Of a stretch of DNA of 64,000 nucleotides, positions 2,566 through 51,910 are shown one piece after another. Every line of letters begins with the position of its first letter. Within the stretch, counting starts at the first letter, position 1. The DNA is taken from sequence record PP129558, one strand, 5' to 3'. This DNA comes from Escherichia phage vB_EcoM_01. Below the pieces are notes generated by a model that was given only the letters and a program-made list of their open reading frames with translations, did no database searches and was not told the origin of the DNA. The position numbers were made by a program, and so were the translations under genes.

Positions 2566-2574
2566 GGAGTTTAA

Positions 2575-3636
2575 ATGGCGAAGCCAATATATTATCCTGA
2601 CTGGGCTACACAAACTGTAACGCTCCCAGGAACTTTAAACACAAACAAAATTAGACCTAAAGAAACCATCCGCACAGTTGGTATGGATTATGGTCAAATC
2701 ATGACTTGCGAAGAAATGAACTGGATTCTTAATAATATCGGTTTATGGATTCGTTATTTGGTGGATGACTTTATTCCAACTTTACCTAATACTTACTTGC
2801 CTTTAGTTGGAACTAAGATTACAATGGCAGGTGATGCTACTGGTGAGGCTACTTGGAACGGTGATAAAGAAGTTATTTTATCTGTCCAAGTTCAAGATAA
2901 CAGTCATAATCACTTATCGGCAAACATTACAGATGCTACTAGTTCAATAGTAACACCAAATGTGTTGGTAAAACGTGATGCAGGTGGTGCTATTTATGGT
3001 GGTGATGTTTATGTTAATGGTACTTCCACAACAGATCCTGCAACCCTGTTTTTCAAGAACTTTGCAGGACAGACTAATGGTGAGATTTCTGCCGAATACC
3101 AAAGTGGAGGTCAGCTTTATATTTATCGTAGAAATCCTAGTACAGGTAGTGTAGCCGCAGGTGTTCGTTTATATGATGCAGGTTATGTTCTAATAGACAA
3201 TCCAAGATCAAACAATGGACAAGACACTTCTAACGGAAATGCCTTGGTTCGCTTAGATTATCTGAATTCTCGTTTGACTTCTCTTCAGAACACATTGCAA
3301 ACGAATATTAATACTGTTCAAAACAACCTGAATAGTGTTAACAACAACCTCTCTTCCCGTATAAACAATGTAGAAAGTAATCATCAAAGTCAGATTACAA
3401 ATAACTACAACTATGCTAATGGAACCTTTGTAAGAGATATTCGTTACACTAGCCAAGGTGTGTATTATCCGCCAGGGAACGAAGTTTCTTGGACTTATAT
3501 CTGTTCTTCTGGTTATGTTCTTTCTGGTATTATTGTTCAGGAAACAGGTCGTAGTTCTGCGGATAACATTGGTGGGGTTTACTTCAAACGCCTCCAGCGC
3601 AACGTTAACGGAAACTGGTACGATATTGGAGGCTAA
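2575..3636 (+). CDS. tail fibre-like protein
   Basis: 353 aa; Asn/Thr/Gly-rich with a coiled repeat segment (NTLQTNINTVQNNLNSVNNNLSSRINNVESN); AAGGAG RBS. Confidence 0.6.
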   Translation: MAKPIYYPDWATQTVTLPGTLNTNKIRPKETIRTVGMDYGQIMTCEEMNWILNNIGLWIRYLVDDFIPTLPNTYLPLVGTKITMAGDATGEATWNGDKEVILSVQVQDNSHNHLSANITDATSSIVTPNVLVKRDAGGAIYGGDVYVNGTSTTDPATLFFKNFAGQTNGEISAEYQSGGQLYIYRRNPSTGSVAAGVRLYDAGYVLIDNPRSNNGQDTSNGNALVRLDYLNSRLTSLQNTLQTNINTVQNNLNSVNNNLSSRINNVESNHQSQITNNYNYANGTFVRDIRYTSQGVYYPPGNEVSWTYICSSGYVLSGIIVQETGRSSADNIGGVYFKRLQRNVNGNWYDIGG

Positions 3637-4182
3637 ATGATATTTACAAATTTTAAAAAGTATATTCCTGAAGATCCTGAACTAAAAGAATTGGTAGAAG
3701 CAGAGAACATTCTTTTCCTTCGTTGTGATCAAGGTTACGATTGGTATGATTTACGTAGCACAGAATTCAATAACGATAAAATGAAAGTCGTTTTTGATGA
3801 TCAAAATCGTATTGTGTTTTGGAATACTGATCCTACACTACTTTGCCCTGAAGATCTTTCTATAGCACAAGTAGACTTTAATATAGATACTTTTGAGGAT
3901 ATTAGGAACAAGGTTTTGGATTTAGAAACCTTAACTCTTAAGGATAAAGAGTATTCCCGTGAAGAGTTGATGACGCAAGCTAGTGCAAAGATTCGCTCTT
4001 TACAAGAGACAGCGGTAGCACTTATAACACCTTTACAATATGCTAAAGATTTAGAAATGGCTACTGAAGATGAATTAGCTTATCTTAAAAATCTTCAAGT
4101 TTATGTGGTTAAACTAAACCGTGTTCCGCTTCAAAAAAACTATCCTTACACTATAGATTGGCCTACATTACCGACGGAATAA
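3637..4182 (+). CDS. hypothetical protein (possible fibre assembly/chaperone)
   Basis: 181 aa ORF directly following the fibre gene. Confidence 0.5.
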   Translation: MIFTNFKKYIPEDPELKELVEAENILFLRCDQGYDWYDLRSTEFNNDKMKVVFDDQNRIVFWNTDPTLLCPEDLSIAQVDFNIDTFEDIRNKVLDLETLTLKDKEYSREELMTQASAKIRSLQETAVALITPLQYAKDLEMATEDELAYLKNLQVYVVKLNRVPLQKNYPYTIDWPTLPTE

Positions 4183-4530: not shown

Positions 4531-7500
4531 ATGGCAACATTCCCAACATATCCAGCAACGTCTCTTGAACAGGGCGTAGATCTGGTTATTTTCTCGTCTA
4601 ACCAACTCCATGATGTTATTAATGGAAGTGCTACAGAGAGTATTGAAACAGAATCAGGGTTGATACCAACCCTGAGAAAAGCCCTTGTTGACAACTTTTT
4701 CTTTAAAAGTCCATTAGATTGGGCGCAAGGCACAAACGAAACAGTTTTTAACCAACTTCGTTATTTCCAGAACGGAGTGTTGAGTGGTTATTACTATGCG
4801 CCTAATGCTACGCTGGTAAACCCAATTCCTATGCAAGGGACTCCAGTAGGAGATAACAACTGGGTATTGTGGGGACTGAAGACAGAACAACTAGCAACAG
4901 AAGTCACCCCTTGGGTATATTCTGGTGCAACTGGTTATGAAACAGTAATCAGTCCTCCCTACATCTTTGATAGTGCTATTGTTACAATCAATGGTGTTAT
5001 TCAGGTTCTGGGAGAAGCTTTCCGCATAGAAGATAGTAAAATCATTTTATCTGAACCTTTGGGACATGATCCTGCAACAGGACTGCCAAACAAGCTTTTT
5101 GCCTATATTGGTAAAATCGTAGCTTCCGCAGATACAGATCCTAACTTAGAAAACCGTCTTGTCAGTTTAGAAACAAAAACTGAAGAACTGACAGAAAGCA
5201 TGGATAAAGTACCTTTACAAACTATTGCTCGTAAATACGGTTTGTTGGATGATGAAGTAGCTTACGCAACAGCGGGTCAATCATTAACAGGGATTAAAGC
5301 TCTGTATGATCCGGTAGCACAATCTTCCTACACATTGCCTCCTAACATCACAGGGACTTTAACATCTTTGTCTGTTTCTGGAGTAATGACTTATTCTGGC
5401 GGATCTGTAGACCTTTCTGCATTAGCTGTTGAACGTGGACAGTTTGTTCATTTGCCTACAAGCTTTGGTAATAACGTAACTCTGACAGCTAAAAATCAGA
5501 CGATTGGGCGTGGCGCTGGTCGCTATCGTTGGGCGGGGAGTTTACCAAAAAGTATTTTAGCTTCTGATACATTGGAAACAAGTGGTGGATTAGGTCCAAA
5601 TGCATGGGTTCTAACTAATACAGAAGGACTGTTAACCCCTCGTGGTGGAACATACAACGATTTATTCGATGTTGTCTACTTGTCAGAATTTGCTAACAAT
5701 ACAACTACCTATGCCACACCAGAAGCAGCTTTCCAGGCGGCACTGTTAGCAGCAAAAGCTTCGAAAAGTAAGATTCTCGACGCTTACGGTTGTGATATGA
5801 CTTTCACGACAAGCTCTTTTGATATTCAAGATATCACTTTGCGTGGGGGTGTGTTCCGTGGTCAACGCGACTATCGTGTGCAAAATGCTACAGTAGAAGG
5901 CACAACTTTCCGTAACTCTCGTGTTATGTATTGGGGTGGTGCTGTGCGCATGTTCGATTGTTTGTGGGACGGTGCTCCTCGCGCAGGTCAAGTTGGTAGC
6001 TTGGTATTCCAAGGCAACCCAATATCAGGTACTTTTGAAATTGATAATTGTACTTTTAAAAATGGGTTATATGGCATCCTTCAACAAGGAACAGGGGAAC
6101 CAGTAACACGTGGTGTCTTCCGTAACCTTACCTTCATGGACATGCAAGGTGATGCAATAGAACTGAACGTCATCAATAAACATTATGACGATGGTTGTGT
6201 GATTGAGAATATTTACCTGTCTAATATCGATGGGACTAACGCTCCTATTCCTCTGTCCAACTGGGGTATCGGTATCGGTGTAGCTGGTAAAGGACCATAT
6301 GGTTACGGAATCCCTGATGATCAATATTGCAAGAATATTACAATTCGTAACGTTTTTGCAAAACGTTGTCGTCAGATTGTCCACGTAGAAGTTGGTCGTA
6401 ATATCTCTATCGAAAACATTCATGGCGATCCAGATCAAACCGTATCTGTTGGGACAGGTTTGGCAACAGGCGCAGTTGTAATGTATGGAAGTAAAGATTT
6501 TACGATTGACGGTGTTTACGGAGAGCCTAAAACAGACGGTAGCACACTTGCAAGTAATATCCGTATGATTTATTTGGAGTGGGGAACTAACGCAGTTCTG
6601 GACGAAGAGGGTAATCCGGTAGTTCCGGCACAGGGTAGACCTTCAAACCCATGCTTTAACTATTCTGTTCGTAACATTCACACCAAAACTGGGCGTGTTT
6701 TTGCGGGAGTTTCCGCTGGGCCAGGTTATGAAAACAGAGTTAGCTTTGAAAATATTCGTTGCGCTGCATTGCAGTTGTTCGGTATAGCTTCTTGGCTTTC
6801 AATGTCTAACATCACCTGTAATATCTTCGATTGTGTTGGTCAACCTGAATCTGGTCCAGGGACATTTTATGATGGATTCTTCCGTAGAGAAAAATCTGTT
6901 CTTGAAATGGTTAACGTAAACTGTTACCCAGATGGCAAGACGATGGTTACTGGTCGTCCACAGTGGAGCCGTTGCCGTTACTCGGATATTCATCGTGTCA
7001 ACTGTAATGTTGAAGCTAATATGTATACCAATATCGCAGGTGGTATTGGAGCTATTGTAGGGACAACGGGCAAAGTTTATTACTTAGAGCCTAATCCTAG
7101 TCGAAACATTGATGGAATGCATTTCCCAACAGGGAAAGAGTTTGACAAAGGTGATATGATAGTCAAGGCGGATAATACGTTCTTCCTTGTAACAACAAGT
7201 GGGGCATATATTCCAGATATCCCAGCTTTCGGTATTCGAGCTACACAAGCAGGAGATACCTTCCTGACACAGAACTTGACTCCTAACGGGACAGCAACAA
7301 ATGCTTCTTGGTTGTATCATTACCCTCTGTCAGCAGGGACACGTATCCGTATTCCTGGTGCTGGCGTAGGTGGAGCAGATTTGGACACAGTTATTACTCG
7401 TGCACCTTATCAAGATAATGATACGTGGACTAACCCAGTTAAAATAGACATTGCAGATCCAATTGTAACGCCTACAAGTGCTGGAGTTAGAATTAAAACC

Positions 7501-7646: not shown

Positions 7647-9671
7647 ATGAATTTAACAAGACCTAATAGTGCGATAGCCGATCTGGTAGAAGCTACTTAT
7701 CGAAAACGTCGCAGCTTTGAGGCAGGTTTTACATTACGTAATTCCCGTGAAGTTTTGCTGTTAGCAGCAGAAGGGAATTATTACCAATGGAAAGGAACTT
7801 TTCCTAAAGTAGTTCCAGCAAACTCTACGCCAGCCACCACAGGTGGTATTTCTTCCCTTGCATGGCAAAGTGTTGGGACCGCTGATGATATAGCAATTAT
7901 CAATGCCAAGTTTACGGCAGTGCAACAACAGATCGATGATTTGTCAGAAGCAATACCTGAAGCTGGTAAATCGGCTTATCAGATCGCACTTGATAATGGT
8001 TTTGTTGGAACAGAAGCACAATGGCTTGCTTCTTTGAAAGGGGATACTGGTGCTCAACTTAATATTAAAGGATCATTAGCAAGCACTAGTGAACTACCAT
8101 CTACAGGTAACGTTGCAGGGGATGGTTATATCGTAGGTGATGTTATTTACGCTTGGGACGGTTCTGTTTGGAAACTTATTTCTTCTCTTGGACCAGAAGG
8201 GAAATCAGCTTACGAGGTATGGTTGGCAGATGGTAATACAGGATCTGTTTATGACTTTCTTGCCTCTATAAAAGGTGATAAAGGAGACGTTGGTCCTACA
8301 GGTCCACAGGGTGCACCTGGTGTCAACGCTAATGGTTTTGATTATCGTGGGGATTTGCCTTCTACAAGTAACTTACCACAACCTAACTCTGAAAACGTAA
8401 GCCAAGCTTATTCTATCAGTGGTAATCTTTATGTCTCCAATGGGACAGCTTGGGTCAACATGGGTAATATTGTTGGTCCTCAAGGTCCACAAGGTGAGGC
8501 AGGTAAAGACGGTCTAGATGGAACAGATGGAGATGAAGGGAAATCTGCATATCAAAGTTGGCTGGATGCTGGTAATGAAGGGACAGAAGTAGATTTTATT
8601 GCCTCGCTTAAAGGTCCAAAAGGAGACAAGGGAGAGCAAGGAGAACGAGGACCACAAGGCGAATTAGGTCCACAAGGACCAGTGGGTGCAACAGGATCAG
8701 GTTTAGAGATTATCGGGGTTCTGAACAGCGAAGCTGAACTTCCTCCGACTGGAGAAGTAGGTGACGCATATAAAATTAATAATGATTTGTATGTTTGGGT
8801 TCAAGATGCTACGGAATGGATGAATGTTGGTAGTCTTGGAGGAACATCAATTACAGCTAAAGGTCATGTTCCGAACAGTGAAGCTCTACCTGTTTACAAT
8901 AACTATGGTGATGCTTACTTAACTGAAGACACTAGTAATCTTTACATCTATACCTACGATCAAGACACCAATTCCGCATCTTTTGTTGACATGGGAAGTA
9001 TTAAAGGCGACAAAGGTGAAAAAGGGGATAAAGGAGATAAGGGTGATCCTGGAACAAACGGAACCAACGGTACTGATGGGACCAACGGTAAGGACGGCGC
9101 ACAGTGGTTTGTAGCAACAACTAATCCAGTCACAGGAGACGGTGTTATCAATGATTACGCCTTCAATACTACTACTGGAGCAGTATTTAAGAAAACAGAT
9201 TCTTCTACGTGGACACTTATAGGAACTCTTCCTAGTATACCAGAAGCCCCTCAAGACGGCTTGACGTATGGTCGTTCTGATGGAAACTGGATCGAAATAT
9301 CAGGATCAGATCCTACGGAAGCTATAACACCAACTAAAGTTACAGCAGGTTTCATGGAACTTGAAACAACTACTGCCAACTCTGGAGCATCTTGGACTCC
9401 TTCTGGAACTTCCAATATGTATGTTGTTACAGTAACTGACGCTCTGACAGTTGGAGCATGGCCTGGTGTCACTGGCTCTACAAAACCTAAAGCGTTTTCA
9501 GCAATGATTTATTTGATTCAAGATACAACGGGACACACGGTTACACTAGATGCGTCTTATGGAGCACTAAATGATACAGAAATAGCAACTACTGCTAACG
9601 CAGTAACAATTTTGCAATTAACGTATCCTGGTGTGGGTGATATCGTGGACATGGTTGTTGTAACACGATAA
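7647..9671 (+). CDS. collagen-like repeat tail fibre protein
   Basis: 674 aa; several Gly-X-Y runs (GPQGPQGEAGKDGLDGTDGDEG; GPKGDKGEQGERGPQGELGPQGPVGATG; GDKGEKGDKGDKGDPGTNGTNGTDGTNGKDG) and three copies of GKSAY(Q/E)..L(D/A)..G..F(L/I)AS(L/I)KG. Confidence 0.8.
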   Translation: MNLTRPNSAIADLVEATYRKRRSFEAGFTLRNSREVLLLAAEGNYYQWKGTFPKVVPANSTPATTGGISSLAWQSVGTADDIAIINAKFTAVQQQIDDLSEAIPEAGKSAYQIALDNGFVGTEAQWLASLKGDTGAQLNIKGSLASTSELPSTGNVAGDGYIVGDVIYAWDGSVWKLISSLGPEGKSAYEVWLADGNTGSVYDFLASIKGDKGDVGPTGPQGAPGVNANGFDYRGDLPSTSNLPQPNSENVSQAYSISGNLYVSNGTAWVNMGNIVGPQGPQGEAGKDGLDGTDGDEGKSAYQSWLDAGNEGTEVDFIASLKGPKGDKGEQGERGPQGELGPQGPVGATGSGLEIIGVLNSEAELPPTGEVGDAYKINNDLYVWVQDATEWMNVGSLGGTSITAKGHVPNSEALPVYNNYGDAYLTEDTSNLYIYTYDQDTNSASFVDMGSIKGDKGEKGDKGDKGDPGTNGTNGTDGTNGKDGAQWFVATTNPVTGDGVINDYAFNTTTGAVFKKTDSSTWTLIGTLPSIPEAPQDGLTYGRSDGNWIEISGSDPTEAITPTKVTAGFMELETTTANSGASWTPSGTSNMYVVTVTDALTVGAWPGVTGSTKPKAFSAMIYLIQDTTGHTVTLDASYGALNDTEIATTANAVTILQLTYPGVGDIVDMVVVTR

Positions 9672-9712: not shown

Positions 9713-12385
9713 ATGTTTCCAATTCCAATATTTACTATTATGACCAGCACTGGTGTCGTTCCTCTGCCAGCAGGTATTGTTAAAAAAGTAATCACTTTAG
9801 ATTACCCAGATAATGCTGGCAATTCTAATAGCAGTTTAGCAATTTTGCTTAATGATGGTAGATTGTTTACTCAAGGCGCAAACCTTTTTGGTGAGATTGC
9901 AGATGGAACTCGTAGTGCACGATTCAATAATTTCCACTTAGCTTCTACTGTAGTAGCGGATGTGTTTACCGCAGATCGTTGTTTTGTTATTAAAACTAAC
10001 AGTGGAGGATGGCAATATTCAGGATTGACAGCAGGATTGGTAGGATCTATAGCAGCAGGTGGTACGGACGCATGTGTAACTACTTGGACCAGCTTTCCAT
10101 CTGTAATAACAGGGACTATCTCTTTAGCTAATCTTAAAGAGGTTAAGGGAGGATATAACAATACTCTCTGGTTAATGAATAGTGGTGTTCTTTATGGATC
10201 AGGTCAAAACACAGTAGGTAGTTTAGGTGCAAGTACTACTAACGAAGTTTCTACTCCTCGTCAGATAACAAGTGCAGCAGTTGCTTTTGATGCAGGTTAC
10301 AACCAATGTTCTTATGTCAACAATGTGGGAACCTTGCGTGTTTGTGGAGCCAGTAAAGGTTTAGCAGGTAATAATAACACAACAACAGCTTTTGTCAATG
10401 CCAAGATATCCGCTACTGAAACAGTGTATGTCAAAGATTACATCAATACAGTTTCCCAGACAATAGTTGTAGGAGATACCTCCGGTGGCACGGGTACAGT
10501 AAACTACTTATATGTTAGATCTAATACAGAAACAACCTACACTAAACTGGATACCTTTGCAGCAGGTTTCTCAACATGGAAGTTTCCACCAAGCCGCCAC
10601 TCTTTTTTCGTTGGGATCAATAATTCCTTGTGGGCTATTGGTAAGAACTACACTGCAAACTTAGGTTTGGGGTATGATTCTGCGAGCGGAGATCCACTCC
10701 AAGTGGGAAAACCAGTTAAACCTGAAGGAGTGGGTTCTTGGGATATAAACAAGCTCACAAGCGTTCATACGCTGAATATGGATGTTACTAACCAATTAGG
10801 TTATCAAGGAACCTTTTTCGTTTATAATGGAGATATGTATTATTCCGGTATTTGGAAAGATGGGAAAGCCTCGTATCTGTTCAATAGTGGTCTAAACTAT
10901 AATAAATTCACACCAATAGCAAGCTCCGTGATTACGGGCGATATTCTGGCAACTGGCTTAACTACAGATTCTTTAGGAATTTGTATTGTAGGTGGAACTA
11001 AACAGTTGACACATTCTGTTAGCCCAGAAGGAGGTAAACTTTTCAATATTAAATACACTTCTTCTGCCCCTGCAAACATGACAATATCATCTACTGGTTT
11101 AATGACTTTCCATGCAGAAGGTGGTTTTGATGCAGGTATGACAGCCTTAAACGCTGAAGGAACAACTTTATCAGATACCTCTGGAGGATATGCTTCAACA
11201 TTGAGCGTTTACACTCCTAGCTTATCTGCGATGGATGTAGGAACAACACAAACAATGGTAGCAGAAATAACGCCAACAGGAGCAGCAAGCTTACCTGGTA
11301 TGGTTGTTGAGTATACAACTACAGATCCTAATGTTGCTACAGTAGATCCTACAACTGGTGTAATAACTGGTGTTGGTGATGGTGGTTGTAGAATTGGTTG
11401 CACAGCTACGTATCAAGGTGTTGTTACCGCTTCTGATAGTTCTTATTTAACGGTGAATGCTGTTGCGGGAAAGGAGTTAGCTCCATCTCCGAGTAGTAGC
11501 TTAACGGTTCTAAACGGATATTTCAACCACTCGGCAGATGGGGCAATTACGTTCCCAATTTTATCGGGTACTGTCACACCAGCTAACTTTGTAGTTAAGG
11601 TGGATGACGTTGTAATACCTTCAAATAAAGTAATATTTAGAAATAAAGCTTTCTCTACAGTGGATAGCTATCCAGCAGGAGAATATAGACTGGCTATTGA
11701 ATTTGCAAGTGCTTCAGTAGTTAATAGTGTGGAAGTGTCTATGGAAGCAAACCCAAGTCTTTTAGAACTTTGGGGCGGTAATAGAATCAGTTATTCTACA
11801 AGCCCAGCCTCACAATTCTTAAAAGGTTGTGCTAACTTAAGACGAATAACTTCTGATTGTTTTAGTAACACATCTTACACCGGAACATCTATAAGTGGTA
11901 TCTTCTCTGGCTGTACAAGTTTGACAGCTATCCCTGAAGGTTTATTCAGTGATACTTTATTTCCTTCAATGACAACAATGTCAAGCACGTTTGAAGGTTG
12001 TACATCTTTAACATCTATTCCTTCAGATTTATTTAAGAATCTATCAAAAGTTACAAGATATTCTTACACCTTTAAAGATTGCACGTCTCTTGCAGAAGTT
12101 CCAGCAGGAATGTTTGATAATATTCCAACGAAAGTGACCTCTTTAACAGCTACATTCCAAGGTTGTTTAGCACTTACAGATTTTAATAAAATCTTTAATG
12201 ACAACCCAGGGTTAACTGTTTGTGGTAAACGTGGAGCATTATCTTCTTTCTTTAGTGGATGCACAAATCTTACAGGAACAGGAACAACATTAACAAATAC
12301 ATTAGGCGGAGTAGCTAATAGTTACCTATTCAGGTATTGCACAAAACTTTCTGATTATAACAACATTCCTTCCGGTTATAAATAA
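9713..12385 (+). CDS. large tail fibre/adhesin-like protein with C-terminal leucine-rich repeats
   Basis: 890 aa; repeated F(S/E/K/Q)GCTSLT.IP..LF units in the C-terminal third (BspA-type LRR-like); Ser/Thr/Gly-rich N-terminal two thirds. Confidence 0.7.
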   Translation: MFPIPIFTIMTSTGVVPLPAGIVKKVITLDYPDNAGNSNSSLAILLNDGRLFTQGANLFGEIADGTRSARFNNFHLASTVVADVFTADRCFVIKTNSGGWQYSGLTAGLVGSIAAGGTDACVTTWTSFPSVITGTISLANLKEVKGGYNNTLWLMNSGVLYGSGQNTVGSLGASTTNEVSTPRQITSAAVAFDAGYNQCSYVNNVGTLRVCGASKGLAGNNNTTTAFVNAKISATETVYVKDYINTVSQTIVVGDTSGGTGTVNYLYVRSNTETTYTKLDTFAAGFSTWKFPPSRHSFFVGINNSLWAIGKNYTANLGLGYDSASGDPLQVGKPVKPEGVGSWDINKLTSVHTLNMDVTNQLGYQGTFFVYNGDMYYSGIWKDGKASYLFNSGLNYNKFTPIASSVITGDILATGLTTDSLGICIVGGTKQLTHSVSPEGGKLFNIKYTSSAPANMTISSTGLMTFHAEGGFDAGMTALNAEGTTLSDTSGGYASTLSVYTPSLSAMDVGTTQTMVAEITPTGAASLPGMVVEYTTTDPNVATVDPTTGVITGVGDGGCRIGCTATYQGVVTASDSSYLTVNAVAGKELAPSPSSSLTVLNGYFNHSADGAITFPILSGTVTPANFVVKVDDVVIPSNKVIFRNKAFSTVDSYPAGEYRLAIEFASASVVNSVEVSMEANPSLLELWGGNRISYSTSPASQFLKGCANLRRITSDCFSNTSYTGTSISGIFSGCTSLTAIPEGLFSDTLFPSMTTMSSTFEGCTSLTSIPSDLFKNLSKVTRYSYTFKDCTSLAEVPAGMFDNIPTKVTSLTATFQGCLALTDFNKIFNDNPGLTVCGKRGALSSFFSGCTNLTGTGTTLTNTLGGVANSYLFRYCTKLSDYNNIPSGYK

Positions 12386-12390
12386 GAAAA

Positions 12391-12417
12391 GGAGCCATTT
12401 GGCTCCTTTCTTTTATA
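12391..12417. terminator. bidirectional terminator between convergent genes
   Basis: ggagcc-attt-ggctcc hairpin flanked by A-run upstream and T-run downstream. Confidence 0.6.
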
Positions 12418-12441
12418 AAAACTCTTTATAAATCAATAAGA

Positions 12442-13329
12442 TCAGAACGGAATATCATCATCGAAGTCCATTGGAGGTTCTTCTTGATTGCTTGGAGTTG
12501 GTTCTGGTTGTGGTTCAGGCTTTTTAACTTCTTTCTTCTCTTCTTTCTTAGGTTGTTCTGCGGAACCACGAATGGCAGCAGCAACTTTATCAGACAAAGC
12601 TAGAACTTTACGAGCAGAGTCAATCAGATCTTCTACAGATACAGTCTTAATGGTATGGTCTTTACAAGCATTGAGAATAGCGTGACCAACAGATGCCCCA
12701 AGATCATAATCATTAATATCAACGCCACGAGATTCAGCAATTTCAGATTTCAGCGTGACAGTTGCAGATTGAACAACCCCAGCGATATCGAAAGCATCGC
12801 CTTTAACACCATTACGAATCAGTTCCAGTGCACCATTTACTGCGTGACCAGTTTCCAGACCTACAGTATCACGTTTTTTATAGGACTGCTTAGGAGCAGC
12901 ATCGTTGGAACCTTTATTGCCAGAAGATTTGTTAGACTTCTGAACACCATCGGTAGACAATACTGTAATACGAGATTTTTTAGTATTGTAGTAAGTTTTA
13001 CCGCCTTTATTATCAACGCGATCAATATCAATACTTACTTCTACACCTTTTTCAATAGTGATCCAATTATCACCTTCTTTGACTTGCAGGTTTTCATAAC
13101 CTTCTTTCAGTTCAATGTCACCAAGAGAAATCCAAACACCTTTCTCATCTGGTTTAGCACCTTTCTCTTTCAGAACAAGAGAGGCTCGGTGAGTTGAAAC
13201 AATCGTTTTTCCTTCCCAATGAAAAGTTTTAGGTTCAGCGAATTTATCCAGTTTAACGTAGTCTACGATACCAGTTGCATAAGTTACGGTTTTGCCTTTA
13301 CGATCAGTTTCAGTATTAATTACGGACAT
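12442..13329 (-). CDS. single-stranded DNA-binding protein-like
   Basis: 295 aa; Gly/Ser/Lys-rich linker, acidic C terminus ending MDFDDDIPF (E. coli SSB-type tail). Confidence 0.6.
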   Translation of the reverse strand: MSVINTETDRKGKTVTYATGIVDYVKLDKFAEPKTFHWEGKTIVSTHRASLVLKEKGAKPDEKGVWISLGDIELKEGYENLQVKEGDNWITIEKGVEVSIDIDRVDNKGGKTYYNTKKSRITVLSTDGVQKSNKSSGNKGSNDAAPKQSYKKRDTVGLETGHAVNGALELIRNGVKGDAFDIAGVVQSATVTLKSEIAESRGVDINDYDLGASVGHAILNACKDHTIKTVSVEDLIDSARKVLALSDKVAAAIRGSAEQPKKEEKKEVKKPEPQPEPTPSNQEEPPMDFDDDIPF

Positions 13330-13345
13330 TATTATCTCCTCTACA

Positions 13346-13738
13346 TTACATTAATTTTGCACAGAAAGAGCGGAGTCTTTCCATATCATCTTGCTCTAAC
13401 AGGTATTTACCTTTACCTATTCCAACTCCAATTTCACCATTAGGAAAATGAACTATTTGCACTGGGAAACCTCCGAGTTTAATTGTGGCAGCTTTGCCTT
13501 CTTCGTCTATAACGTTTCGGATTGTATCTTGCAGTGAAATGAATTCTTTGTTTGTAACAGTGGTTTCAATTATTTCAGATGTTTCGACACGAGCAGTTAG
13601 CTTCTTGTTTCCACCTTGAATAACCAAAATTTGAAAATAAAAAGAGTTGTCAAGACCTACAACATTTTTCTCAACTAGTGTCAAACTGGTGTAGTTTCCA
13701 TAAACAGTTTCAACAGCTATCTTAGAACGTTCAGTCAT
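13346..13738 (-). CDS. hypothetical protein
   Basis: 130 aa ORF, co-oriented. Confidence 0.5.
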   Translation of the reverse strand: MTERSKIAVETVYGNYTSLTLVEKNVVGLDNSFYFQILVIQGGNKKLTARVETSEIIETTVTNKEFISLQDTIRNVIDEEGKAATIKLGGFPVQIVHFPNGEIGVGIGKGKYLLEQDDMERLRSFCAKLM

Positions 13739-13747
13739 TGAATGCTA

Positions 13748-13776
13748 TCCTATCATAAAATGTTTAATATTGTCAA
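13748..13776 (-). promoter_or_regulatory. candidate sigma70-like promoter
   Basis: TTGACA (rc of 13771-13776), about 18 nt spacer, TAGGAT, upstream of 13738 start. Confidence 0.3.
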
Positions 13777-13783
13777 GCTTTAA

Positions 13784-14377
13784 TTACCAAGGAATATCAT
13801 CTTCTTCCAATCTGGTATCTACTTGAGGTGGACGTGGAACCTTAACCTCTTTCACAAAACGAAGATATGGGAAACGTGTAGCAATTTTAATAACATGTTT
13901 GGCATCTTCTCTAACATCTTTGTGCAAGAAGCAGATCCCTGTTTCCAAGGTTGTTTCAAAATCTTTAGAATAATAACAGTCCTTCCCATCAAATGCAGCC
14001 TGGCAGATGGACAGATCGAACTCATTTAGAAAGGTTGTCATTACATTTGGGTCCATAATCATAAGGTTGCAAAGCTGACCATCACGTTCAAACTCAAAAA
14101 CGTGTTTAAGACCAGTAACACCTTCATAATTGTCAGAAGCCTCTTTGTTTCCTAGTTTACGAATATTGGTTCCCATTAAAGCAGATGCAATTAATCCTTG
14201 TACTTGTTCTTCAGTCCGATGTGCAGGAAGGGATGTATAGAAATCCAGATCACGTCCAGCAATATCAAGAATACGCCAATCACGAACAGCACCGCCAGCC
14301 AAGACAGAATTAGGATCAGCGATCTTTAATACGGTAAGAATTTCTTTGGCAATATTGATTTGTTTTGATTTAGTCAT
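13784..14377 (-). CDS. minimal nucleotidyltransferase-fold protein with SSB-like C-terminal tail
   Basis: 197 aa; LAGGAVRDWRILDIAGRDLDFYT matches the GG(A/S)xRD...DxD motif of CCA-adding/poly(A) polymerase type nucleotidyltransferases; C terminus LEEDDIPW. Confidence 0.5.
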   Translation of the reverse strand: MTKSKQINIAKEILTVLKIADPNSVLAGGAVRDWRILDIAGRDLDFYTSLPAHRTEEQVQGLIASALMGTNIRKLGNKEASDNYEGVTGLKHVFEFERDGQLCNLMIMDPNVMTTFLNEFDLSICQAAFDGKDCYYSKDFETTLETGICFLHKDVREDAKHVIKIATRFPYLRFVKEVKVPRPPQVDTRLEEDDIPW

Positions 14378-14588
14378 TGATACGCTCCACAGTTACTTTT
14401 ACAACATCGTCCATATTAATCTCATCCCCCAAGACCTCAATAACACCTTCCTCATAAAGTCGAGCACATTCTTCCCACACTTCAGCTTCCGTCATTCCAC
14501 CTGCAATCTTATTTGCAAGACCTTTAATAACATCTTCATTTTGTTCATCAACAAGAATTGAAACATTAAAGCTCACTAATTTACGCAT
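14370..14588 (-). CDS. hypothetical small acidic protein
   Basis: 72 aa ORF. Confidence 0.45.
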   Translation of the reverse strand: MRKLVSFNVSILVDEQNEDVIKGLANKIAGGMTEAEVWEECARLYEEGVIEVLGDEINMDDVVKVTVERIND

Positions 14589-14597
14589 TGTTTTCTC

Positions 14598-14759
14598 CTT
14601 ATACTTCTAAACGGAAAGTTTCTTTAGATACAAAATCGTATCCACCTTTTTCAAGCCAGTCATTGTAAACCTCATCGGCTTGAGATTCTATCATAAAATA
14701 CCGAGTGGTAACTTCGTCTCCGACAATACGCACAATTTTATAGCAAATCATGATACCAT
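14598..14759 (-). CDS. hypothetical small protein
   Basis: 53 aa ORF not in the supplied track; GGAGGA RBS 6 nt upstream of ATG at 14759. Confidence 0.4.
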
Positions 14760-14765
14760 TTCCCA

Positions 14766-14957
14766 TTAATCTTCCTCCAGATCAATTTCATTATAACAAT
14801 GTATGCAGAAACCATCATTGTGCATATGTTGTTCATAGGACATATCTTTACCACAAGACCAACAACGGATATCCCCATCGTCCCATTCACGTTCTTCTTC
14901 ACCTTCAAATTCATCTGGTAGGTAAGGCATACCAAAATAATCTAAATCGTAACTCAT
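14766..14957 (-). CDS. small zinc-ribbon-like protein
   Basis: Start taken at internal ATG (MSYDLDY) with AGGAGA RBS; CWSC...CIHC cysteine pairs. Confidence 0.5.
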   Translation of the reverse strand: MSYDLDYFGMPYLPDEFEGEEEREWDDGDIRCWSCGKDMSYEQHMHNDGFCIHCYNEIDLEED

Positions 14958-14970
14958 ATCTTCTCCTATA

Positions 14971-14989
14971 AAGGGGCAGAAGCCCCTTA
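14971..14989 (-). terminator. stem-loop downstream of DNA polymerase gene
   Basis: aaggggc-agaa-gcccctt inverted repeat. Confidence 0.4.
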
Positions 14990-15006
14990 TAAAACAACAT
15001 GTTAGA

Positions 15007-18000
15007 TCAATGACAGGATGCCCAGGAATTACCCACGTCATATCCGGCAGTAAGCTGAACGTTAAGATTGTAAAATTCTCCAGCCTTAGTAACAGCTAAA
15101 GCAGCAAGCTCACCTGCCCGACTATAAGCTGTAAACCATCCACCTTTAGGAGATTCATGAATGTTAGCCCAAATTTGCCCTGTCTCTTTTTCCTTATTAT
15201 GCTTCCATTCTTCAACTTTAGCAAGGCATTCTTTATCAATTTTCTTTTGTTCTTCAGGATCGTCTACTTTCTTCCAACCTAATGATTCAGGTGAAAACCA
15301 TTTAAATTCTACAAGGTTACGAGAAACTTCAAGCTGGGCTTCATCGTGATATGCAATCATTTGTTGCACGAAGTCTTTATTCTTCCAGTCATCTTTAAAG
15401 AAGTCAACACTTAGCCCTTCTTCTTCTATCATGTCGTCATAAATAACCATTGCACGTTTAGCGCAGATAACCCCACCACTTTGGAACAGAGAGTTAAGAA
15501 TCGCGTGAGCAGAACGAGTAGGAACCTTACGACCGTCAATACCCAAAACATACTGTTTACCAGTCTTAACCCAGAAATCGTTTAAACGTTCTTTAAGACG
15601 TGCCAGTGGGAATGCAGCTTCCCAGAAAGCATCAAACACCAATTGACCTGTAAACTTATCGCTACCAATTGTTTTAGCAACCTTGTCGGCTTGTGCACCA
15701 TAGGTAATACCATACTTAACAGATTTAGCAGGACTACGTTCAAATTTACGTCCAATAGTTTCAGTGATACGTTTTGCCATCATTGTGTGAACATCGTTAG
15801 GTTTCTCTAACAACAGAGCGTTACAATATTCATGTGGCTCCGGCTCGTACCGCCAACAGTAGTGTGATTCAATTTTTGCTTCCAAAGAGTCGAAGTCGTA
15901 GCCGATCTGGAAGTATTTAGGCNNGTCTCTTATACACATCTGACGCTGCCGACGACAGACGTGGTGTGTAGATCTCGGTGGTCGCCGTATCATTAAAAAN
16001 NNNNNNNNNNNNNNNNNNNNNNNNNNNNNNNNNNNNNNNNNNNNNNNNNNNNNNNNNNNNNNNNNNNNNNNNNNNNNNNNNNNNNNNNNNNNNNNNNNNN
16101 NNNNNNNNNNNNNNNNNNNNNNNNNNNNNNNNNNNNNNNNNNNNNNNNNNNNNNNNNNNNNNNNNNNNNNNNNNNNNNNNNNNNNNNNNNNNNNNNNNNN
16201 NNNNNNNNNNNNNNNNNNNNNNNNNNNNNNNNNNNNNNNNNNNNNNNNNNNNNNNNNNNNNNNNNNNNNNNNNNNNNNNNNNNNNNNNNNNNNNNNNNNN
16301 NNNNNNNNNNNNNNNNNNNNNNNNNNNNNNNNNNNNNNNNNNNNNNNNNNNNNNNNNNNNNNNNNNNNNNNNNNNNNNNNNNNNNNNNNNNNNNNNNNNN
16401 NNNNNNNNNNNNNNNNNNNNNNNNNNNNNNNNNNNNNNNNNNNNNNNNNNNNNNNNNNNNNNNNNNNNNNNNNNNNNNNNNNNNNNNNNNNNNNNNNNNN
16501 NNNNNNNNNNNATCATTGTGTGAACATCGTTAGGTTTCTCTAACAACAGAGCGTTACAATATTCATGTGGCTCCGGCTCGTACCGCCAACAGTAGTGTGA
16601 TTCAATTTTTGCTTCCAAAGAGTCGAAGTCGTAGCCGATCTGGAAGTATTTAGGAACCTCTACACCAAACAAGTTACGCATCTCCCATCCAAACAAAGAT
16701 GTGACACGAGGAATGTTAGCTACAGACCTATGCTTCATACGAGAGGTTGCAGCATCACATGTAGCTGCTGGGGTAGGAATACGACCATCCGCCCTTACTG
16801 CGGCTAAGAAACCTTTATCGTATTCTTGATCTTCTTCATCTTCTTCCCAATCAGCACCGCCACCTAAAATAGAGTTCCTACGATGCTTATACGTTAAGTA
16901 TTCTACAATCTGTGTAGCATAAGGGAATTTCTCACCCAAAGCTTGCAGGTTAGGACAGATTTCTTTTTCCTGACCTTTGGTAAAACATGGGTTAGTCAAT
17001 ACTTTAAGACCGCGACCTTTACCTTTTGCTATACGCTCTTGAATCTTCCTTTCCAAGGTTTCCGGTGTGCACTCCAGATGATCACAACGGTCCTGACAAA
17101 AATTAGAAGATAAAGTTTGCTCAACGTAAGCTCGAATACCTTTCTGAAGTTCTTCCTCGCTCTTTTTAATCTTGGTGCCAGATTTAAGAGTCAAGTCTTT
17201 ATCTTTATATTCAGACGGTACCCAACCTAATCCTACAAGCCAGTTTTTAATATGGGTTGTATCGTTCAATGTTGCAGGGATGTGAGGATCACATAAAGGC
17301 TCATCTGCTGCAACTGGCAGTTTCCACTCTTTCCCCAACATAACTAACCACCAATCTCCATCCCTCTCTTCCAAATGACCATCATGTTTCTTAGCAAAAT
17401 TGATCATATGGTTAGTTGGCTCTAAGTTCTTTTTAATTTGCAACTTAGGTGGAATAAAAGCCTTAAGATAGCCTTTTGTTGCTGGTTTAGGTGGCAAAAT
17501 AGGCTCAACGAGTAAACGAAGACGCTCCATTTCTGCATCCAAAAAAGCAAGGTTCTCTTCTGCTTGCTTCATGTTAAAAGCAAATCCACGGTGTTCCTGG
17601 CGTGTAATAATGTCTGCTACACGTTGTTCAAGTTCAAATGGACCTTCCCATTTATCATAATCACCCCACTCTTCCATAAGGTAATTATATACGCTTGTAT
17701 TAGCTTTGTTGTCATAGATACAGTAATAAAGCATATCCGCAGCAAAAGTCTTAAATCGATCTTCTTCTGGAATCTCTTTACGGAAATCTATTTTTACATC
17801 ACCACCTGCTTTTCGAGAAAGTGCTGCCAAGCTATGTCCTGATTTGCCCTCAATCTTTCGATCTGGGTTTAACACTTTACTCAAAATCAAGGAGTCAATA
17901 AGTTTTACCTTATTTTTGCCCCACGTATTATATTTAACACTGTAATCTAATCCATAAAACAGTTTTGTAGCCAACCAGTCGTAGTTGATACCGTTGTGAG

Positions 18001-18337
18001 CCACAGCCATTTCAACCAGATATTCAGGCTTGTCTTCAAAATAACCTTCATGATTAATAAAGTCTGGGAAATCTTTTAGTTGAAAATGTGTGTAATCTTG
18101 CGCCACATACTCTTTAAGAACATATGTGTATTTACCATCTGACTCTTCATAAGGACGCCCATCAAAGATGTATTTAGGGCCATCGTGGAAAGCTACTATT
18201 TCTCCTGTTTCATGGTTCTCTAAGACAATACAGTGCATTTGAAATGTGTCTTTGAGACGATAAGGACTAGCTAAATAATCAATAGTGTCATTATTCAACA
18301 ATCCGTTTGCTTCAATATCCCATGTAAACTTACTCAC
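15007..18337 (-). CDS. family A (Pol I-like) DNA polymerase with 3'-5' exonuclease domain; gene interrupted by assembly artifact
   Basis: N terminus FTWDIEANGL (exo motif); C-terminal part RSPAKSVKYGITYGAQADKVAKTIG resembles family A motif B; the ORF is split by adapter plus N gap at 15922-16511 with 144 bp duplicated on both sides. Confidence 0.8.
15922..15999. other. sequencing adapter contamination (Tn5 mosaic end + index + flow-cell sequence), not biological
   Basis: tctcttatacacatctgacgctgccgacga...gtgtagatctcggtggtcgccgtatcatt is a Nextera-type adapter read-through. Confidence 0.9.
16000..16511. other. scaffold gap (N-run) with duplicated flanks
   Basis: 512 n; 15779-15922 is repeated at 16511-16654. 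Confidence 0.95.
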
Positions 18338-19131
18338 TATTCCTCCTTTCTAATGTTCTCCAGAACCCACTGAAGTTCTTTTAAACTTAAACTTCTTACT
18401 CCCGCAGTTTTACTAGCTTCAGCTTTAAGTAACGGGTAAGCCTCAATGATACGCGTTTTAAGATCAGAAGTCAAGGCTTTTAAAAAATAGGTAGATGCTT
18501 CAGATAAAGAATCTTCTTCTGATAACACTTTACCTGCACTTGCTCCCGCTCTCCTAACGGCTATATCGTAGTCTTTACTGTTACCTAATACGAACAGTCG
18601 ATTCTCTCCTAAAACAACGGGAGAACGCTTCTCGTTGCGTTTAATCCATATCTGGAATACACAAGGAACATCCCAAGGTTCTCCATGAAGAATAAAAGAT
18701 CCTTTTGGACATTCTTCTTCGTAAAGAAGATGCATGTGGGGATTTAGTTTGTGTGCAAAAAAGATTTTTTGAAATGTGCGAGGCAAGATAAAACAAATAC
18801 CACCTTCGTTATCCAACATTTCAGCACAATGGTTAAAGAACTTAATGGCAAGACTGGCATTTTTTCCAAACGGAGGATTACCGACAAAAGCAGTTACACT
18901 GCCAACAGACTCAACAGATTGAGCTAAAAAATCTGCCTCAATACAATCTTCAAACTTAGGGTCAATATCAAAAGAAGTTATGTTTTTAAAACAAGAAGAG
19001 AAAGCTCCTTCTCCCGCAGATGGTTCTACGTAGTTAGCTTCCTCTCCAAAAATTTCTTTGATCTTATCACATAAGAACCCCGCATAAGCGGGGTTAGTGT
19101 AATATTGATCAAGTGTATTCAACTTGCTCAA
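18337..19131 (-). CDS. DNA N6-adenine methyltransferase (orphan)
   Basis: 264 aa; EPSAGEGAF (AdoMet motif I-like) and VGNPPFG ((D/N)PP(F/Y) catalytic motif). Confidence 0.65.
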   Translation of the reverse strand: MSKLNTLDQYYTNPAYAGFLCDKIKEIFGEEANYVEPSAGEGAFSSCFKNITSFDIDPKFEDCIEADFLAQSVESVGSVTAFVGNPPFGKNASLAIKFFNHCAEMLDNEGGICFILPRTFQKIFFAHKLNPHMHLLYEEECPKGSFILHGEPWDVPCVFQIWIKRNEKRSPVVLGENRLFVLGNSKDYDIAVRRAGASAGKVLSEEDSLSEASTYFLKALTSDLKTRIIEAYPLLKAEASKTAGVRSLSLKELQWVLENIRKEE

Positions 19132-19140
19132 TAGTCCTCC

Positions 19141-19572
19141 TTAGTTGTTAGCGAACTCAATAGTGAGGTCAACTTTACCATCGTCAGAAATAACCATGTT
19201 TTTGGTATTTTTAAAGATGATATCTACTTTACCTTCACTTACACGACAGAATGCGACACCATCTGCAACTTTATCGATATAATATTTGTAAGAAAGAATA
19301 CCCACTTTACTACGACCAGCACCTTTTGTGAAAGAAGGGCTTACATCGAAACGGAAACCTTTAGAAGAAACAACACGGTAAGAACGTCCAGTTGGAAGAT
19401 GTTCAATAACAGAGACATTGTTCTCAACAACTTTTACAGCAAACTCTTCAGGATGATCCTCAACAATCATATGTGGGATGGCAAATGCCAACGCTTGTTT
19501 GTGTTTAATAACACCAGCACCCAGAGCACCAGCAGCTTTAACTTTTGCATTCAGATCGATTGTCATACGCAT
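19141..19572 (-). CDS. hypothetical protein
   Basis: 143 aa ORF with AAGAGGAGAAG RBS and upstream promoter. Confidence 0.55.
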   Translation of the reverse strand: MRMTIDLNAKVKAAGALGAGVIKHKQALAFAIPHMIVEDHPEEFAVKVVENNVSVIEHLPTGRSYRVVSSKGFRFDVSPSFTKGAGRSKVGILSYKYYIDKVADGVAFCRVSEGKVDIIFKNTKNMVISDDGKVDLTIEFANN

Positions 19573-21455: not shown

Positions 21456-21734
21456 TTAAAATGGTTCGTTAGTCTCCATCATATATTCTGCTTCTAGTTC
21501 TTCCATGTGCTTTCTAAATTGGAAAGCAATTTCTGCTACAGTTACATTTAAATCTTTTTCAAAAACTTCTGTAGAGCCTTCATAAAAACGAATACCGTCG
21601 ATTAAAAGCCCTCCGTGGTAATCCCAATCACTTTCACGAGAAAGCGGGTTAGGCTCTTCATAATAGTAATCCACCTCCACGACTAAGGCTTTCCCGTTAC
21701 GAGTGGTGTATTCAAAATCAAAAGTGTTAATCAT
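21456..21734 (-). CDS. hypothetical protein
   Basis: 92 aa ORF. Confidence 0.45.
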   Translation of the reverse strand: MINTFDFEYTTRNGKALVVEVDYYYEEPNPLSRESDWDYHGGLLIDGIRFYEGSTEVFEKDLNVTVAEIAFQFRKHMEELEAEYMMETNEPF

Positions 21735-22678
21735 TATAGCTCCTCAAATAAAAGTCTACGACGCTCATTCAACACATCAATGTGATAATGAGTCCTGACA
21801 TACTTAGCTAATGCTAATCCTTTCTCCATGCAAACATCGGGAGCACTTAATAAGTATTCCGTAATATCTTTCCACTCGGAAGGTGTTTCAGCAAAGAATA
21901 ACAAATCTTTAAACTCTTGTGTATGATAATTCTCACGAGGAGAACAGATCAAAGGTAAACCCTTAGCACCTGCCTCAAGAATTTTAAGATTGCTTTTTGC
22001 ATTATTAAACACGTTATCAAGCAATGGCGCAAGACTGATTTGATGACCATCGTAAGATTCCATGTAGTTGGCATATGGTCTTACACCTTCATAAACACAA
22101 GTTGGTGCTACATTTTCTCTGATCACAGACCATTCACGACTACTTAAAACTTCAGAATCCCTACGAAAACCACATATTGTAAGATCTTTACCAAAATCGG
22201 GCAAGATAGCCAAATCTTGTTTATGTGTTTCACTTCCAGCCCAGACTAATGGAGTTTTGGAGTAGCGATCACGGGTCAACACAAATTGACCTTCATCGTA
22301 AGGAAGACCATTAGGGATTATGTGCACATTATCATTGTATTGTGAAAGTTCAACTTGCAAAGCAGGTGTCGTAGTTGTAACAAGATCGCTGTGCTCTAAA
22401 AACCATTTTAAATGTTCACGAATACCTGATTCAAAAATACCTTCTAACATGTGTCCTTTTGGAATAACTAAAGAGTCATCCAAATCCATAACCATTTTAA
22501 AGCCTAGGTTTTTAAGGGCTAAAAAGCCCTCTTTACCTTTTGTTGGCACTCCGTTAAAAACGAAAACGTTGTGTTTAGGTTGTGAAGAGAACTGCCTTGA
22601 GTAAGGCAGCACTACCCTATGGAAATCGCAGACACTATAATTGATTCCGTTACGATTGTCAAGAATTATTTGTCCCAT
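21734..22678 (-). CDS. glycosyltransferase-like protein (GT-B-like), paralogue 1
   Basis: 314 aa; C-terminal NLKILEAGAKGLPLICS resembles the E-x7-G..P sugar-donor motif of GT1/GT4 enzymes; paralogous to next gene. Confidence 0.5.
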   Translation of the reverse strand: MGQIILDNRNGINYSVCDFHRVVLPYSRQFSSQPKHNVFVFNGVPTKGKEGFLALKNLGFKMVMDLDDSLVIPKGHMLEGIFESGIREHLKWFLEHSDLVTTTTPALQVELSQYNDNVHIIPNGLPYDEGQFVLTRDRYSKTPLVWAGSETHKQDLAILPDFGKDLTICGFRRDSEVLSSREWSVIRENVAPTCVYEGVRPYANYMESYDGHQISLAPLLDNVFNNAKSNLKILEAGAKGLPLICSPRENYHTQEFKDLLFFAETPSEWKDITEYLLSAPDVCMEKGLALAKYVRTHYHIDVLNERRRLLFEEL

Positions 22679-36721: not shown

Positions 36722-36946
36722 TTAAAATGGAAGTCTTTGAAGTTCATCTCCTCCGATATCAAGTAATTTAGCAACATCTCGATCAGAAAGCAACTCTTTT
36801 CTTTGTAAAATATCCACAAGGGTTGCAAGAATGTCCTTAACGTCCCGATCACTGTTCTTCAAAAGTTCTCCTGCCGTCCCTACTCTATCTCCTACAGCAA
36901 AATATGTAACCATGAAACCTCCTAAGTTAATCTGATTGCCAACCAC
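36722..36946 (-). CDS. hypothetical small protein
   Basis: 74 aa ORF. Confidence 0.35.
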   Translation of the reverse strand: MVGNQINLGGFMVTYFAVGDRVGTAGELLKNSDRDVKDILATLVDILQRKELLSDRDVAKLLDIGGDELQRLPF

Positions 36947-49431: not shown

Positions 49432-49458
49432 TAGGGGNTAATATGNTTNAGTNNNGAG

Positions 49459-50211: not shown

Positions 50212-50220
50212 GGAGAGAAT

Positions 50221-50385: not shown

Positions 50386-50397
50386 GAGGGGAAGTTT

Positions 50398-51893: not shown

Positions 51894-51910
51894 TACAGCA
51901 CAAATAGCTA

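Follow-up and report, generated by a model that had tools for sequence, protein, structure and literature searches.

Here we describe a small phage enzyme whose C-terminus resembles the docking tip of bacterial SSB, the protein that binds single-stranded DNA. This enzyme, a 197-aa nucleotidyltransferase (NTase), is encoded in a stretch of 64,000 nucleotides (nt) from Escherichia phage vB_EcoM_01 (sequence record PP129558), which was analysed at its full length and is called the window below. It ends in ...RLEEDDIPW, with the stop codon directly after Trp197. From sequence comparison, structure modelling and analogy we propose, with a probability of about 0.5, that this tail is a docking peptide of the SSB-tip type that would tether the enzyme to the receptors of SSB tails. 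The finding plausibly combines elements of known kinds, a minimal Gad2-related NTase and an SSB-type docking tail. The open reading frames (ORFs) and motifs concerned are as follows.

13784-14377, minus strand: 197-aa minimal class II-type nucleotidyltransferase, Gad2-related (ORF; PHROG 10174/1614 'nucleotidyltransferase'; AF2 model; Foldseek; hhalign)
13787-13807, minus strand: EEDDIPW codons, an SSB-tip-like putative docking motif (sequence, model, conservation), followed by the stop codon at 13784-13786
13808-13849, minus strand: codons of a variable low-confidence linker, about residues 177-190 of the NTase (pLDDT; length and sequence differ among relatives)
13346-13738, minus strand: 130-aa protein of PHROG 16560 (unknown function), which accompanies the NTase gene
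12442-13329, minus strand: 295-aa SSB-like protein (ORF; model; its family includes bas52_0087)
12445-12471, minus strand: MDFDDDIPF codons, the same peptide as the C-terminal tip of E. coli SSB (PDB chains), followed by the stop codon at 12442-12444

The NTase and SSB-like ORFs, their coordinates and their end sequences are as the initial annotation gave them, on the minus strand, with the 130-aa ORF between them.

In the AF2 model the tail of the NTase (residues 191-197) is disordered (pLDDT <50), and residues 181-190 have a pLDDT of 58. Mean pairwise identity among nine tailed NTases is 0.62 in the catalytic core, 0.27 in the linker and 0.91 in the last five residues, a pattern that short linear motifs on flexible tethers typically show. 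All homologues with 59% identity or more end in D-D-[IS]-[IF]-P-W, preceded by a linker that varies in length and sequence. P0064, which is only 34% identical and shares the gene order polymerase-NTase-129 aa-SSB-like, ends in PDDIPW. The acidic run E-E-D-D and the I-P after it are kept in relatives, and where these end in NDFEDDIPW or EDFQDDIPW the likeness to the MDFDDDIPF of E. coli SSB spans 8-9 residues. The terminal Phe of the SSB tip is replaced by Trp in the window NTase and in all tailed relatives of the Stephanstirmvirinae type.

Ends of the form [DE][DE][ILVMF]P[FWY] are found on the NTase and the SSB-like ORF only, that is on 2 of the window's 414 stop-to-stop ORFs with a length of 50 aa or more. 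Among about 1,000 further ORFs of related loci such ends occur only in homologues of these two genes, together with one non-acidic ...LQRLPF. Two other minus-strand ORFs of the window finish in Pro-Phe outside the acidic Ile-Pro pattern, 21456-21743 (...METNEPF) and 36722-37009 (...ELQRLPF); the latter corresponds to a 63-aa gene annotated in Mt1B1_P17, where it comes after the small-subunit gene of the anaerobic ribonucleotide reductase. Two further ideas about the tail were set aside. Only 11 nt (GATGATATTCC) are common to the DNA of the two tails, within the shared D-D-I-P codons, which argues against one being a recent copy of the other, and by inspection EEDDIPW does not fit the clamp-binding motif QL[SD]LF.

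The tail recurs across the NTase family. An exhaustive profile-free search gave 273 clusters of about 200 aa, and ends were counted over the 150 representatives listed. Of these, eight have a C-terminal [ILVF]P[FWY], and seven of the eight are independent of the clade to which the window NTase belongs. Family representatives with ends of this kind are listed here.

P0064: NTase family representative ending in ...PDDIPW
P0150: NTase family representative ending in ...SSNDIPW
P0160: NTase family representative ending in ...PDDGIPF
P0164: NTase family representative ending in ...NDTIPF
P0187: NTase family representative ending in ...PYIPF
P0200: NTase family representative ending in ...KPIPF
P0092: NTase family representative ending in ...ESIPY

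Another NTase, P0018, found through a word-indexed search, ends in ...SNDFPW, and several further family members have an acidic C-terminus with Phe as the last residue. Among the tailed lineages the final residue is Trp in four, Phe in four (P0160, P0164, P0187 and P0200) and Tyr in P0092. A tree made from the catalytic domain only places the tailed NTases in about eight separate positions among untailed sequences. As background we took the 21 of 6,101 ORFs with such ends in 80 IMG/VR phage loci, a deliberately generous figure (about 0.3%) since most of these ORFs are true SSBs. From this background about 0.5 tailed NTases would be expected where 8 of 150 were counted (Poisson P 8e-8). Within the same IMG/VR loci, 4 of 79 NTases are tailed, as compared with 21 among the 6,101 ORFs that are not NTases (Fisher p 2.6e-4). 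On these counts the tail appears as the trait of a minority of about 5%, yet one clearly associated with the NTase family.

These results bear on the possibility that the two tails resemble each other by compositional coincidence and that the likeness has no function. The motif is short and both C-termini are acidic, as such a coincidence would have it, but the rarity of the pattern among the window ORFs, its frequency of 5% in the family against a background of about 0.3%, the conservation of the last five residues over the linker (91% against 27%) and the retention of DDIPW at 34% overall identity leave this explanation very improbable indeed. The resemblance to the SSB tip that the initial annotation had pointed out is borne out by selective conservation and scattered recurrence, which contradict a compositional coincidence, and sequence comparison confirms it as a real, selected feature of the NTase.

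In unrelated phages NTase genes adjoin polymerase, ligase or primase-helicase genes. The NTase gene of P0150 overlaps the gene of an ATP-dependent DNA ligase at the latter's end (L015 5655-7608), that of P0160 precedes a primase/helicase gene (L016 1108-2908), and in other unrelated phages an SSB lies within a few kb of the NTase gene. An exonuclease encoded on L015 (413-1486) has a T7-like tail, ...LDDFDDF. A dependence of the tail on a neighbouring SSB-like gene was considered and rejected. Tailed P0018 and P0150 are without such a neighbour in the flanks read, and the NTases of phi92 and Klebsiella phage FKP3 have the same synteny and no IPW tail. The initial annotation had stressed that the tailed NTase is encoded beside the SSB gene. 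On this comparison the proximity of the SSB-like gene belongs to the replication module of the Stephanstirmvirinae and is no attribute of the tail.

The domain that carries the tail has the hallmarks of a nucleotidyltransferase. Motif A, LAGGAVRDW, occupies residues 26-34, the metal-binding carboxylates of DLD (residues 43-45) lie within RDLDFY, and G28, G29, R32, D43 and D45 are invariant across 43 family members. Using Foldseek, we compared the AF2 model (pLDDT 85.5, pTM 0.79) with the PDB; ranks 1-33 were all class II CCA-adding, A-adding or poly(A) enzymes, with E-values down to 4e-5 and TM scores of 0.43-0.56 over the query (0.21-0.32 when normalised to the target). Structure prediction thus supports the nucleotidyltransferase fold that the initial annotation had suggested from the motif. 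In the family profile helix 1, GGAVRD and DxD align to CCA-adding enzymes and the similarity ends after motif A. Scores against Pfam PF01743 (PolyA_pol; 13.7 bits, cut-off 23) and NCBIfam TIGR02692 (12.6 bits, cut-off 438.8) are sub-threshold. The NTase amounts to the head and part of the neck of the class II enzymes, which are 340-520 aa long, and the body and tail domains that hold the tRNA are absent, as is the set of nucleotide-selecting motifs B-E. Small phage NTases of 170-220 aa, widespread and uncharacterised, have the same fold. As modelled, the 197-aa protein is a minimal pol-beta-superfamily nucleotidyltransferase.

Many GenBank records label this protein 'putative tRNA nucleotidyl transferase / poly(A) polymerase'. 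Because its size covers only head and neck, the similarity stops at motif A and the scores lie below thresholds, the label speaks of fold, not function. With the class II CCA-adding, A-adding and poly(A) enzymes (PF01743) the NTase shares the pol-beta-type head fold and the motif A pattern GGxVRD...DxD, but it is half their size and its gene stands among replication genes, not tRNA genes. It could still be a plain phage tRNA nucleotidyltransferase or poly(A) polymerase that repairs or matures tRNA 3' ends, with the tail incidental. The GenBank annotation, the CCA-adding enzymes as closest solved folds and the agreement in motif A are what this explanation would predict, but the missing tRNA-holding domains in a protein of 197 aa, the similarity that stops after motif A, the sub-threshold Pfam and NCBIfam scores, the position of the gene in a replication module of a window in which no tRNA genes were found, and a tail under selection make it improbable. 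We infer a catalytic role for the NTase only from the intact DxD, from a relationship to Gad2 and from the replication and repair neighbourhood.

Gad2, a phage protein of 400 aa in which an NTase domain is predicted, inhibits the Gabija defence; anti-Gabija activity has been shown only for Gad2 of Bacillus phage SPbetaL7 and a Brevibacillus homologue, and the authors' own list contains homologues of 214-228 aa (bioRxiv 10.1101/2023.05.01.538930). According to a 2026 review its mechanism is still unknown (PMC12904381). Precomputed matches to the Pfam family PF26128 'Gad2' exist for several NTase family members, tailed ones among them; P0009 (59% identical to the window NTase), P0017, P0164 and others have such a match, and P0001, which is 96% identical, has none. 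We aligned eight Gad2 homologues from the supplementary table of bioRxiv 10.1101/2023.05.01.538930 and compared them by hhalign with the NTase family alignment, which gave a probability of 96.6% and an E-value of 5.8e-10 over 116 columns. A hidden Markov model built from the Gad2 homologues matches 107 of 197 NTase family members; P0001 reaches only 13.3 bits and the window NTase is not reported. Pairwise BLAST of the Gad2 homologues against the window was not significant, so that the link required profiles, and a search of the window and Mt1B1_P17 for a long-form Gad2 found none. Since the 96%-identical cluster is without a precomputed match and the BLAST comparison is not significant, we place the window NTase at the edge of the Gad2 relationship, as Gad2-related and not a Gad2.

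Gad2 and the NTase family, both phage-encoded, align in the AGG...D-x-D-x-[YF] motif and in the FD-[FL]-[ST]-[IV]-C block after it. Gad2 differs from the window NTase in that, at about 400 aa, it has a further C-terminal region which the 197-aa window NTase lacks, and in that the Gad2 motif reads AGGxITSLF where the window NTase has AGGAVRDW; an SSB-type tail has not been described for Gad2. Ends among the complete Gad2 homologue sequences read (supplementary table 10) include ...TLKPIF and ...KAVPIF (Paenibacillus) and ...EAPYPWF (Schlesneria). These hydrophobic or aromatic C-termini may or may not have a connection with the short family's IP[FW] tails.

The 295-aa SSB-like protein ends in ...SNQEEPPMDFDDDIPF and matches the end of E. 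coli SSB, ...APSNEPPMDFDDDIPF (PDB chains), over about 14 residues. Likeness to SSB sequences is confined to the last 20-40 residues (searches of PDB and NCBIfam returned the tail only), and there is no match in the protein to PF00436, the SSB OB domain. The model has a confident beta domain (1-125), a disordered stretch, a four-helix domain (156-253) and a disordered K/E/P-rich tail. Against the PDB the N-terminal domain gives weak matches (best E 0.016) that are repeatedly OB folds, namely Ta0387, Stn1, TEBP, the MCM N-terminal domain, anticodon domains of aminoacyl-tRNA synthetases and D. radiodurans SSB. The protein reads as an OB-fold-like and helical-domain protein and is not a canonical SSB. 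What the initial annotation called the SSB gene does encode the E. coli SSB C-terminal peptide, but the protein has to be assigned to the family of Bas52_0087 instead. Among the best 120 of 137 matches to this family a tip of the DFDDDIPF type is near-universal, and every member with a terminal tip ends in Phe.

Homology to bas52_0087 of BASEL phage Bas52 was found by tblastn (MZ501102.1). The long family members of the rV5 type are matched at E-values of about 1e-23. Bas52_0087 is itself SSB-like with a host-type tip and triggers the defence system DRT10, and a link to ExoI/SbcB has been proposed (bioRxiv 10.64898/2026.04.29.721553), so that the SSB-like half of the present finding is already described in outline. 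The two proteins share the FDDDIPF tip; Bas52_0087 has 408 aa with a second OB-like insert, against 295 aa in the window. In the rV5-like phages (Bas52) no NTase gene stands between the polymerase gene and the SSB-like gene, and the DRT10 paper makes no mention of a tailed NTase.

In the SSB-like gene of many viable relatives the DDDIPF codons are followed immediately by an inserted HNH homing-endonuclease gene, for example at L009 3738-4261 (Mt1B1_P17) and L002 5026-6765 (phi92 gp156/gp155); the window is uninterrupted at 12442-12444. The insertion swaps the stop codon for about 15 extra residues (APIGLQYGRNFLHCF), and the SSB-type tip is thereby capped. The likely start ATG of the endonuclease lies inside the added extension. 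Similar extensions of the form [AS]P[ILV]GLQY... recur in distant members of the SSB-like family, and the conserved tip-coding DNA therefore looks like a homing site.

The 130-aa gene keeps company with the NTase gene. Its homologues directly follow the NTase in phi92, FKP3, L011 and L014, and the two co-travel in several lineages of the Stephanstirmvirinae type, down to 34% identity. Upstream of the SSB-like gene in rV5-like Bas52 no homologue was found; Bas52 has the SSB-like gene and neither of the other two, so the 130-aa gene follows the NTase and not the SSB-like gene. The 130-aa protein may be a partner of the NTase.

Tips of a similar kind are found on other phage proteins. In the IMG/VR contig L094 a primase/helicase ends in ...ERADDRVPF and the SSB-like protein of the same contig in ...DLDEDVPF (ORFs 2228-3904 and 6193-6750). 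In L051, also from IMG/VR, a DnaD-like loader ends in ...DDEEGLPF and an SSB-like protein in ...DSFDDSIPF (ORFs 7740-8234 and 18775-19515). Such primase/helicase and loader tips beside SSBs match the principle of T7 gp4 and gp2.5. Proteins of PHROG 862 (unknown function, 233-263 aa) on NTase-bearing contigs end in ...GDDVPW (L043 715-1416), ...KDKDIPW (L048 7074-7805) and ...GEDTPW (L053 7753-8544), so Trp-terminated acidic tips exist on another protein family as well. The initial annotation did not recognise the combination of NTase and tail as a described system. This needs qualifying on two counts, as the NTase family is linked to Gad2 and shared tails are known in T7, but it stands in so far as no non-SSB phage enzyme with an SSB-tip mimic was found in the literature searched.

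Tethering is proposed from anatomy, since a catalytic domain followed by a disordered linker and an invariant acidic-Ile-Pro-aromatic end repeats the anatomy of the SSB tip. In E. coli SSB the Ile-Pro-Phe of the tip and its free carboxylate insert into pockets on partner proteins. The features shared with the NTase are the disordered linker, the acidic run, the Ile-Pro, the C-terminal aromatic residue and the free carboxylate; the SSB tip sits on an OB-fold binder of single-stranded DNA and ends in Phe, whereas the NTase tail sits on an enzyme and ends in Trp. We suggest that the flexible linker joins the NTase domain to a [DE]-D-D-I-P-W-COOH peptide whose acidic run, Ile-Pro, terminal aromatic and carboxylate would plug into pockets that normally receive SSB tails, so that the enzyme would be tethered to proteins gathering on SSB-coated DNA. 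The receptor may be one of the host SSB partners (ExoI, RecQ, PriA, chi or others) or, as in T7, the phage polymerase or primase-helicase. Once tethered, the NTase would transfer nucleotides onto a nucleic-acid (DNA or RNA) 3' end or nucleotidylate a protein.

In T7 the gp4 tail uses the same polymerase sites as the gp2.5 tail. The acidic tail of gp2.5 docks on a basic patch of the T7 polymerase (PMC12339929). Several proteins of the T7 replisome thus share an SSB-like tail and one docking surface, and the window phage likewise has a family A polymerase and a primase-helicase. The tailed proteins of T7 are its SSB (gp2.5) and its primase-helicase (gp4) and their tails are of the ...DF type, whereas here the tail is on a nucleotidyltransferase and the tails copy the IPF-type tip of the host.

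Several observations weigh against docking in SSB-tail pockets. About 95% of the NTase family members are without such a tail. NTases of sister lineages lack IPW and end instead in ...NNEEFKI (phi92), ...DDAWDDDKI (FKP3), ...DLDSFDKF (05F01-like) or ...SPDVFNF (others). The tail thus differs among relatives on the same hosts and changes more quickly than one would expect if its target were conserved pockets of the host; this suggests a phage partner evolving along with it, or a function that is dispensable. The NTase ends in Trp where the tips of the SSB-like family end in Phe, so that its receptor may not be the one that SSB uses. Capped tips in viable phages imply that the SSB-like protein of these phages need not have a free SSB-type tip, and phi92 has neither a free SSB-like tip nor an IPW-tailed NTase. 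On the side of the enzyme, the PF01743 score is below threshold and the window NTase reaches Gad2 via profiles only. The function of the NTase and SSB-like tips is probably conditional, as in host-interaction or anti-defence traits, or redundant.

The same observations can be read in favour of a tail that docks on a phage-specific partner, such as the 130-aa protein, a virion protein or a regulatory protein, with the likeness to SSB a convergence on an acidic run and a terminal aromatic. The variation of the sister-lineage tails (EEFKI, DDAWDDDKI, DSFDKF, DVFNF) on the same hosts is as expected in co-evolution, the NTase ends in Trp and not Phe, and the 130-aa gene co-travels with the NTase. 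We nevertheless consider this explanation unlikely, if the most serious of those weighed here, since the likeness of NDFEDDIPW to MDFDDDIPF reaches 8-9 residues, IP[FW] ends recur in phages of different gene content without the 130-aa gene, and primase-helicase and loader proteins beside SSBs carry the same kind of end. As to the nature of the pocket, the near-copy of the host tip and the recurrence in unrelated phages would favour one of the host type; Trp in place of Phe and the divergent tails of sister lineages on the same hosts would favour a co-evolving phage partner.

The tail could also be self-inhibitory, a nucleic-acid mimic that folds onto the NTase's own substrate groove until it is displaced by a partner or substrate. 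It is acidic and sits on a flexible linker, and tails that bind their own protein are known from E. coli SSB, T7 gp2.5 and T4 gp32 (compare PMC3936761, PMC5892887). Against this, Ile-Pro-Trp-COOH is better conserved than the acidic run, which points to a specific pocket, the AF2 model leaves the tail undocked on the domain (pLDDT <50), and most NTase family members work without such a tail; self-inhibition is accordingly a doubtful explanation, to which we give little weight. Docking in an SSB-tip pocket, our preferred reading, could be taken further by analogy with Gad2. The IPW tail might then be a delivery device that brings a Gad2-type NTase into an SSB-tip pocket, where it would nucleotidylate a protein or cap a DNA 3' end, the targets being ExoI, RecQ, PriA, a helicase-nuclease such as Gabija's partners, or SSB-coated DNA ends. 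This extension is speculative and, as it stands, rather unlikely.

The window belongs to a Phapecoctavirus, an E. coli myovirus of the phAPEC8-like type with about 150 kb, placed in the Stephanstirmvirinae. Over positions 12000-15000 it shares 99% identity with phage anhysbys and with some 65 further records, and the NTase/SSB-like stretch contains no N, with published Phapecoctavirus genomes 99% identical to it. The minus strand carries a leftward replication block of primase-helicase, methyltransferase and family A DNA polymerase (named via synteny with annotated relatives), followed by three small ORFs and then by the 197-aa, 130-aa and 295-aa ORFs and a hairpin terminator. The order polymerase, NTase, 130-aa gene and SSB-like gene is kept in phi92, Klebsiella phage FKP3, 05F01-like and P0064-type phages. 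Scans of the NTase, the 130-aa protein and the SSB-like protein with Pfam, NCBIfam and PADLOC gave nothing above threshold and no defence-system match. The other features of this region are the following.

12387-12410, no strand assigned: hairpin and T-run, a terminator-like site that ends the leftward replication block and is shared with a convergent tail-protein gene (sequence)
13747-13776, minus strand: weak sigma-70-like promoter match in the gap between the NTase and 130-aa genes (TTGACA, 18 nt, TAGGAT; 10/12 matches)
15007-18337, minus strand: gene of a family A (T7-like) DNA polymerase, situated upstream of the block (ORFs; synteny with the annotated DNA polymerase I in SF1-1 and Mt1B1_P17)

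The number of promoter-like sites such as 13747-13776 in the region is not above that in shuffles. The polymerase gene is broken in the window, where at 15923-16511 Nextera adapter read-through (CTGTCTCTTATACACATCTGACGCTGCCGACGA...) adjoins a 512-N gap and a segment of the polymerase is duplicated on either side of the gap. A single polymerase gene thus appears in two artefactual versions, the ORFs 15007-15993 and 15917-18337. The end of the window (63715-64000) is adapter and poly-G, and scattered N are found at 49438-63312, the longest run of N having 947 bases.

Bacteria rely on SSB tips to organise much of their DNA replication, recombination and repair, and phage SSB-like proteins with host-type tips have recently been implicated as defence triggers (DRT10). 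Were the NTase tail to bind a phage partner only, it would be an ordinary extension of the shared-acidic-tail principle of T7. If it does act as a delivery device, the phage would be countering defence by mimicking the SSB interactome, and there would be a first mechanistic handle on Gad2-family enzymes. A tipped enzyme, if our preferred reading is true, would mean that phages can direct catalytic activities as well as DNA binders to the SSB hub or to the phage replisome, and the binding partner of the tail could reveal the substrate and the setting of a widespread family of small phage NTases.

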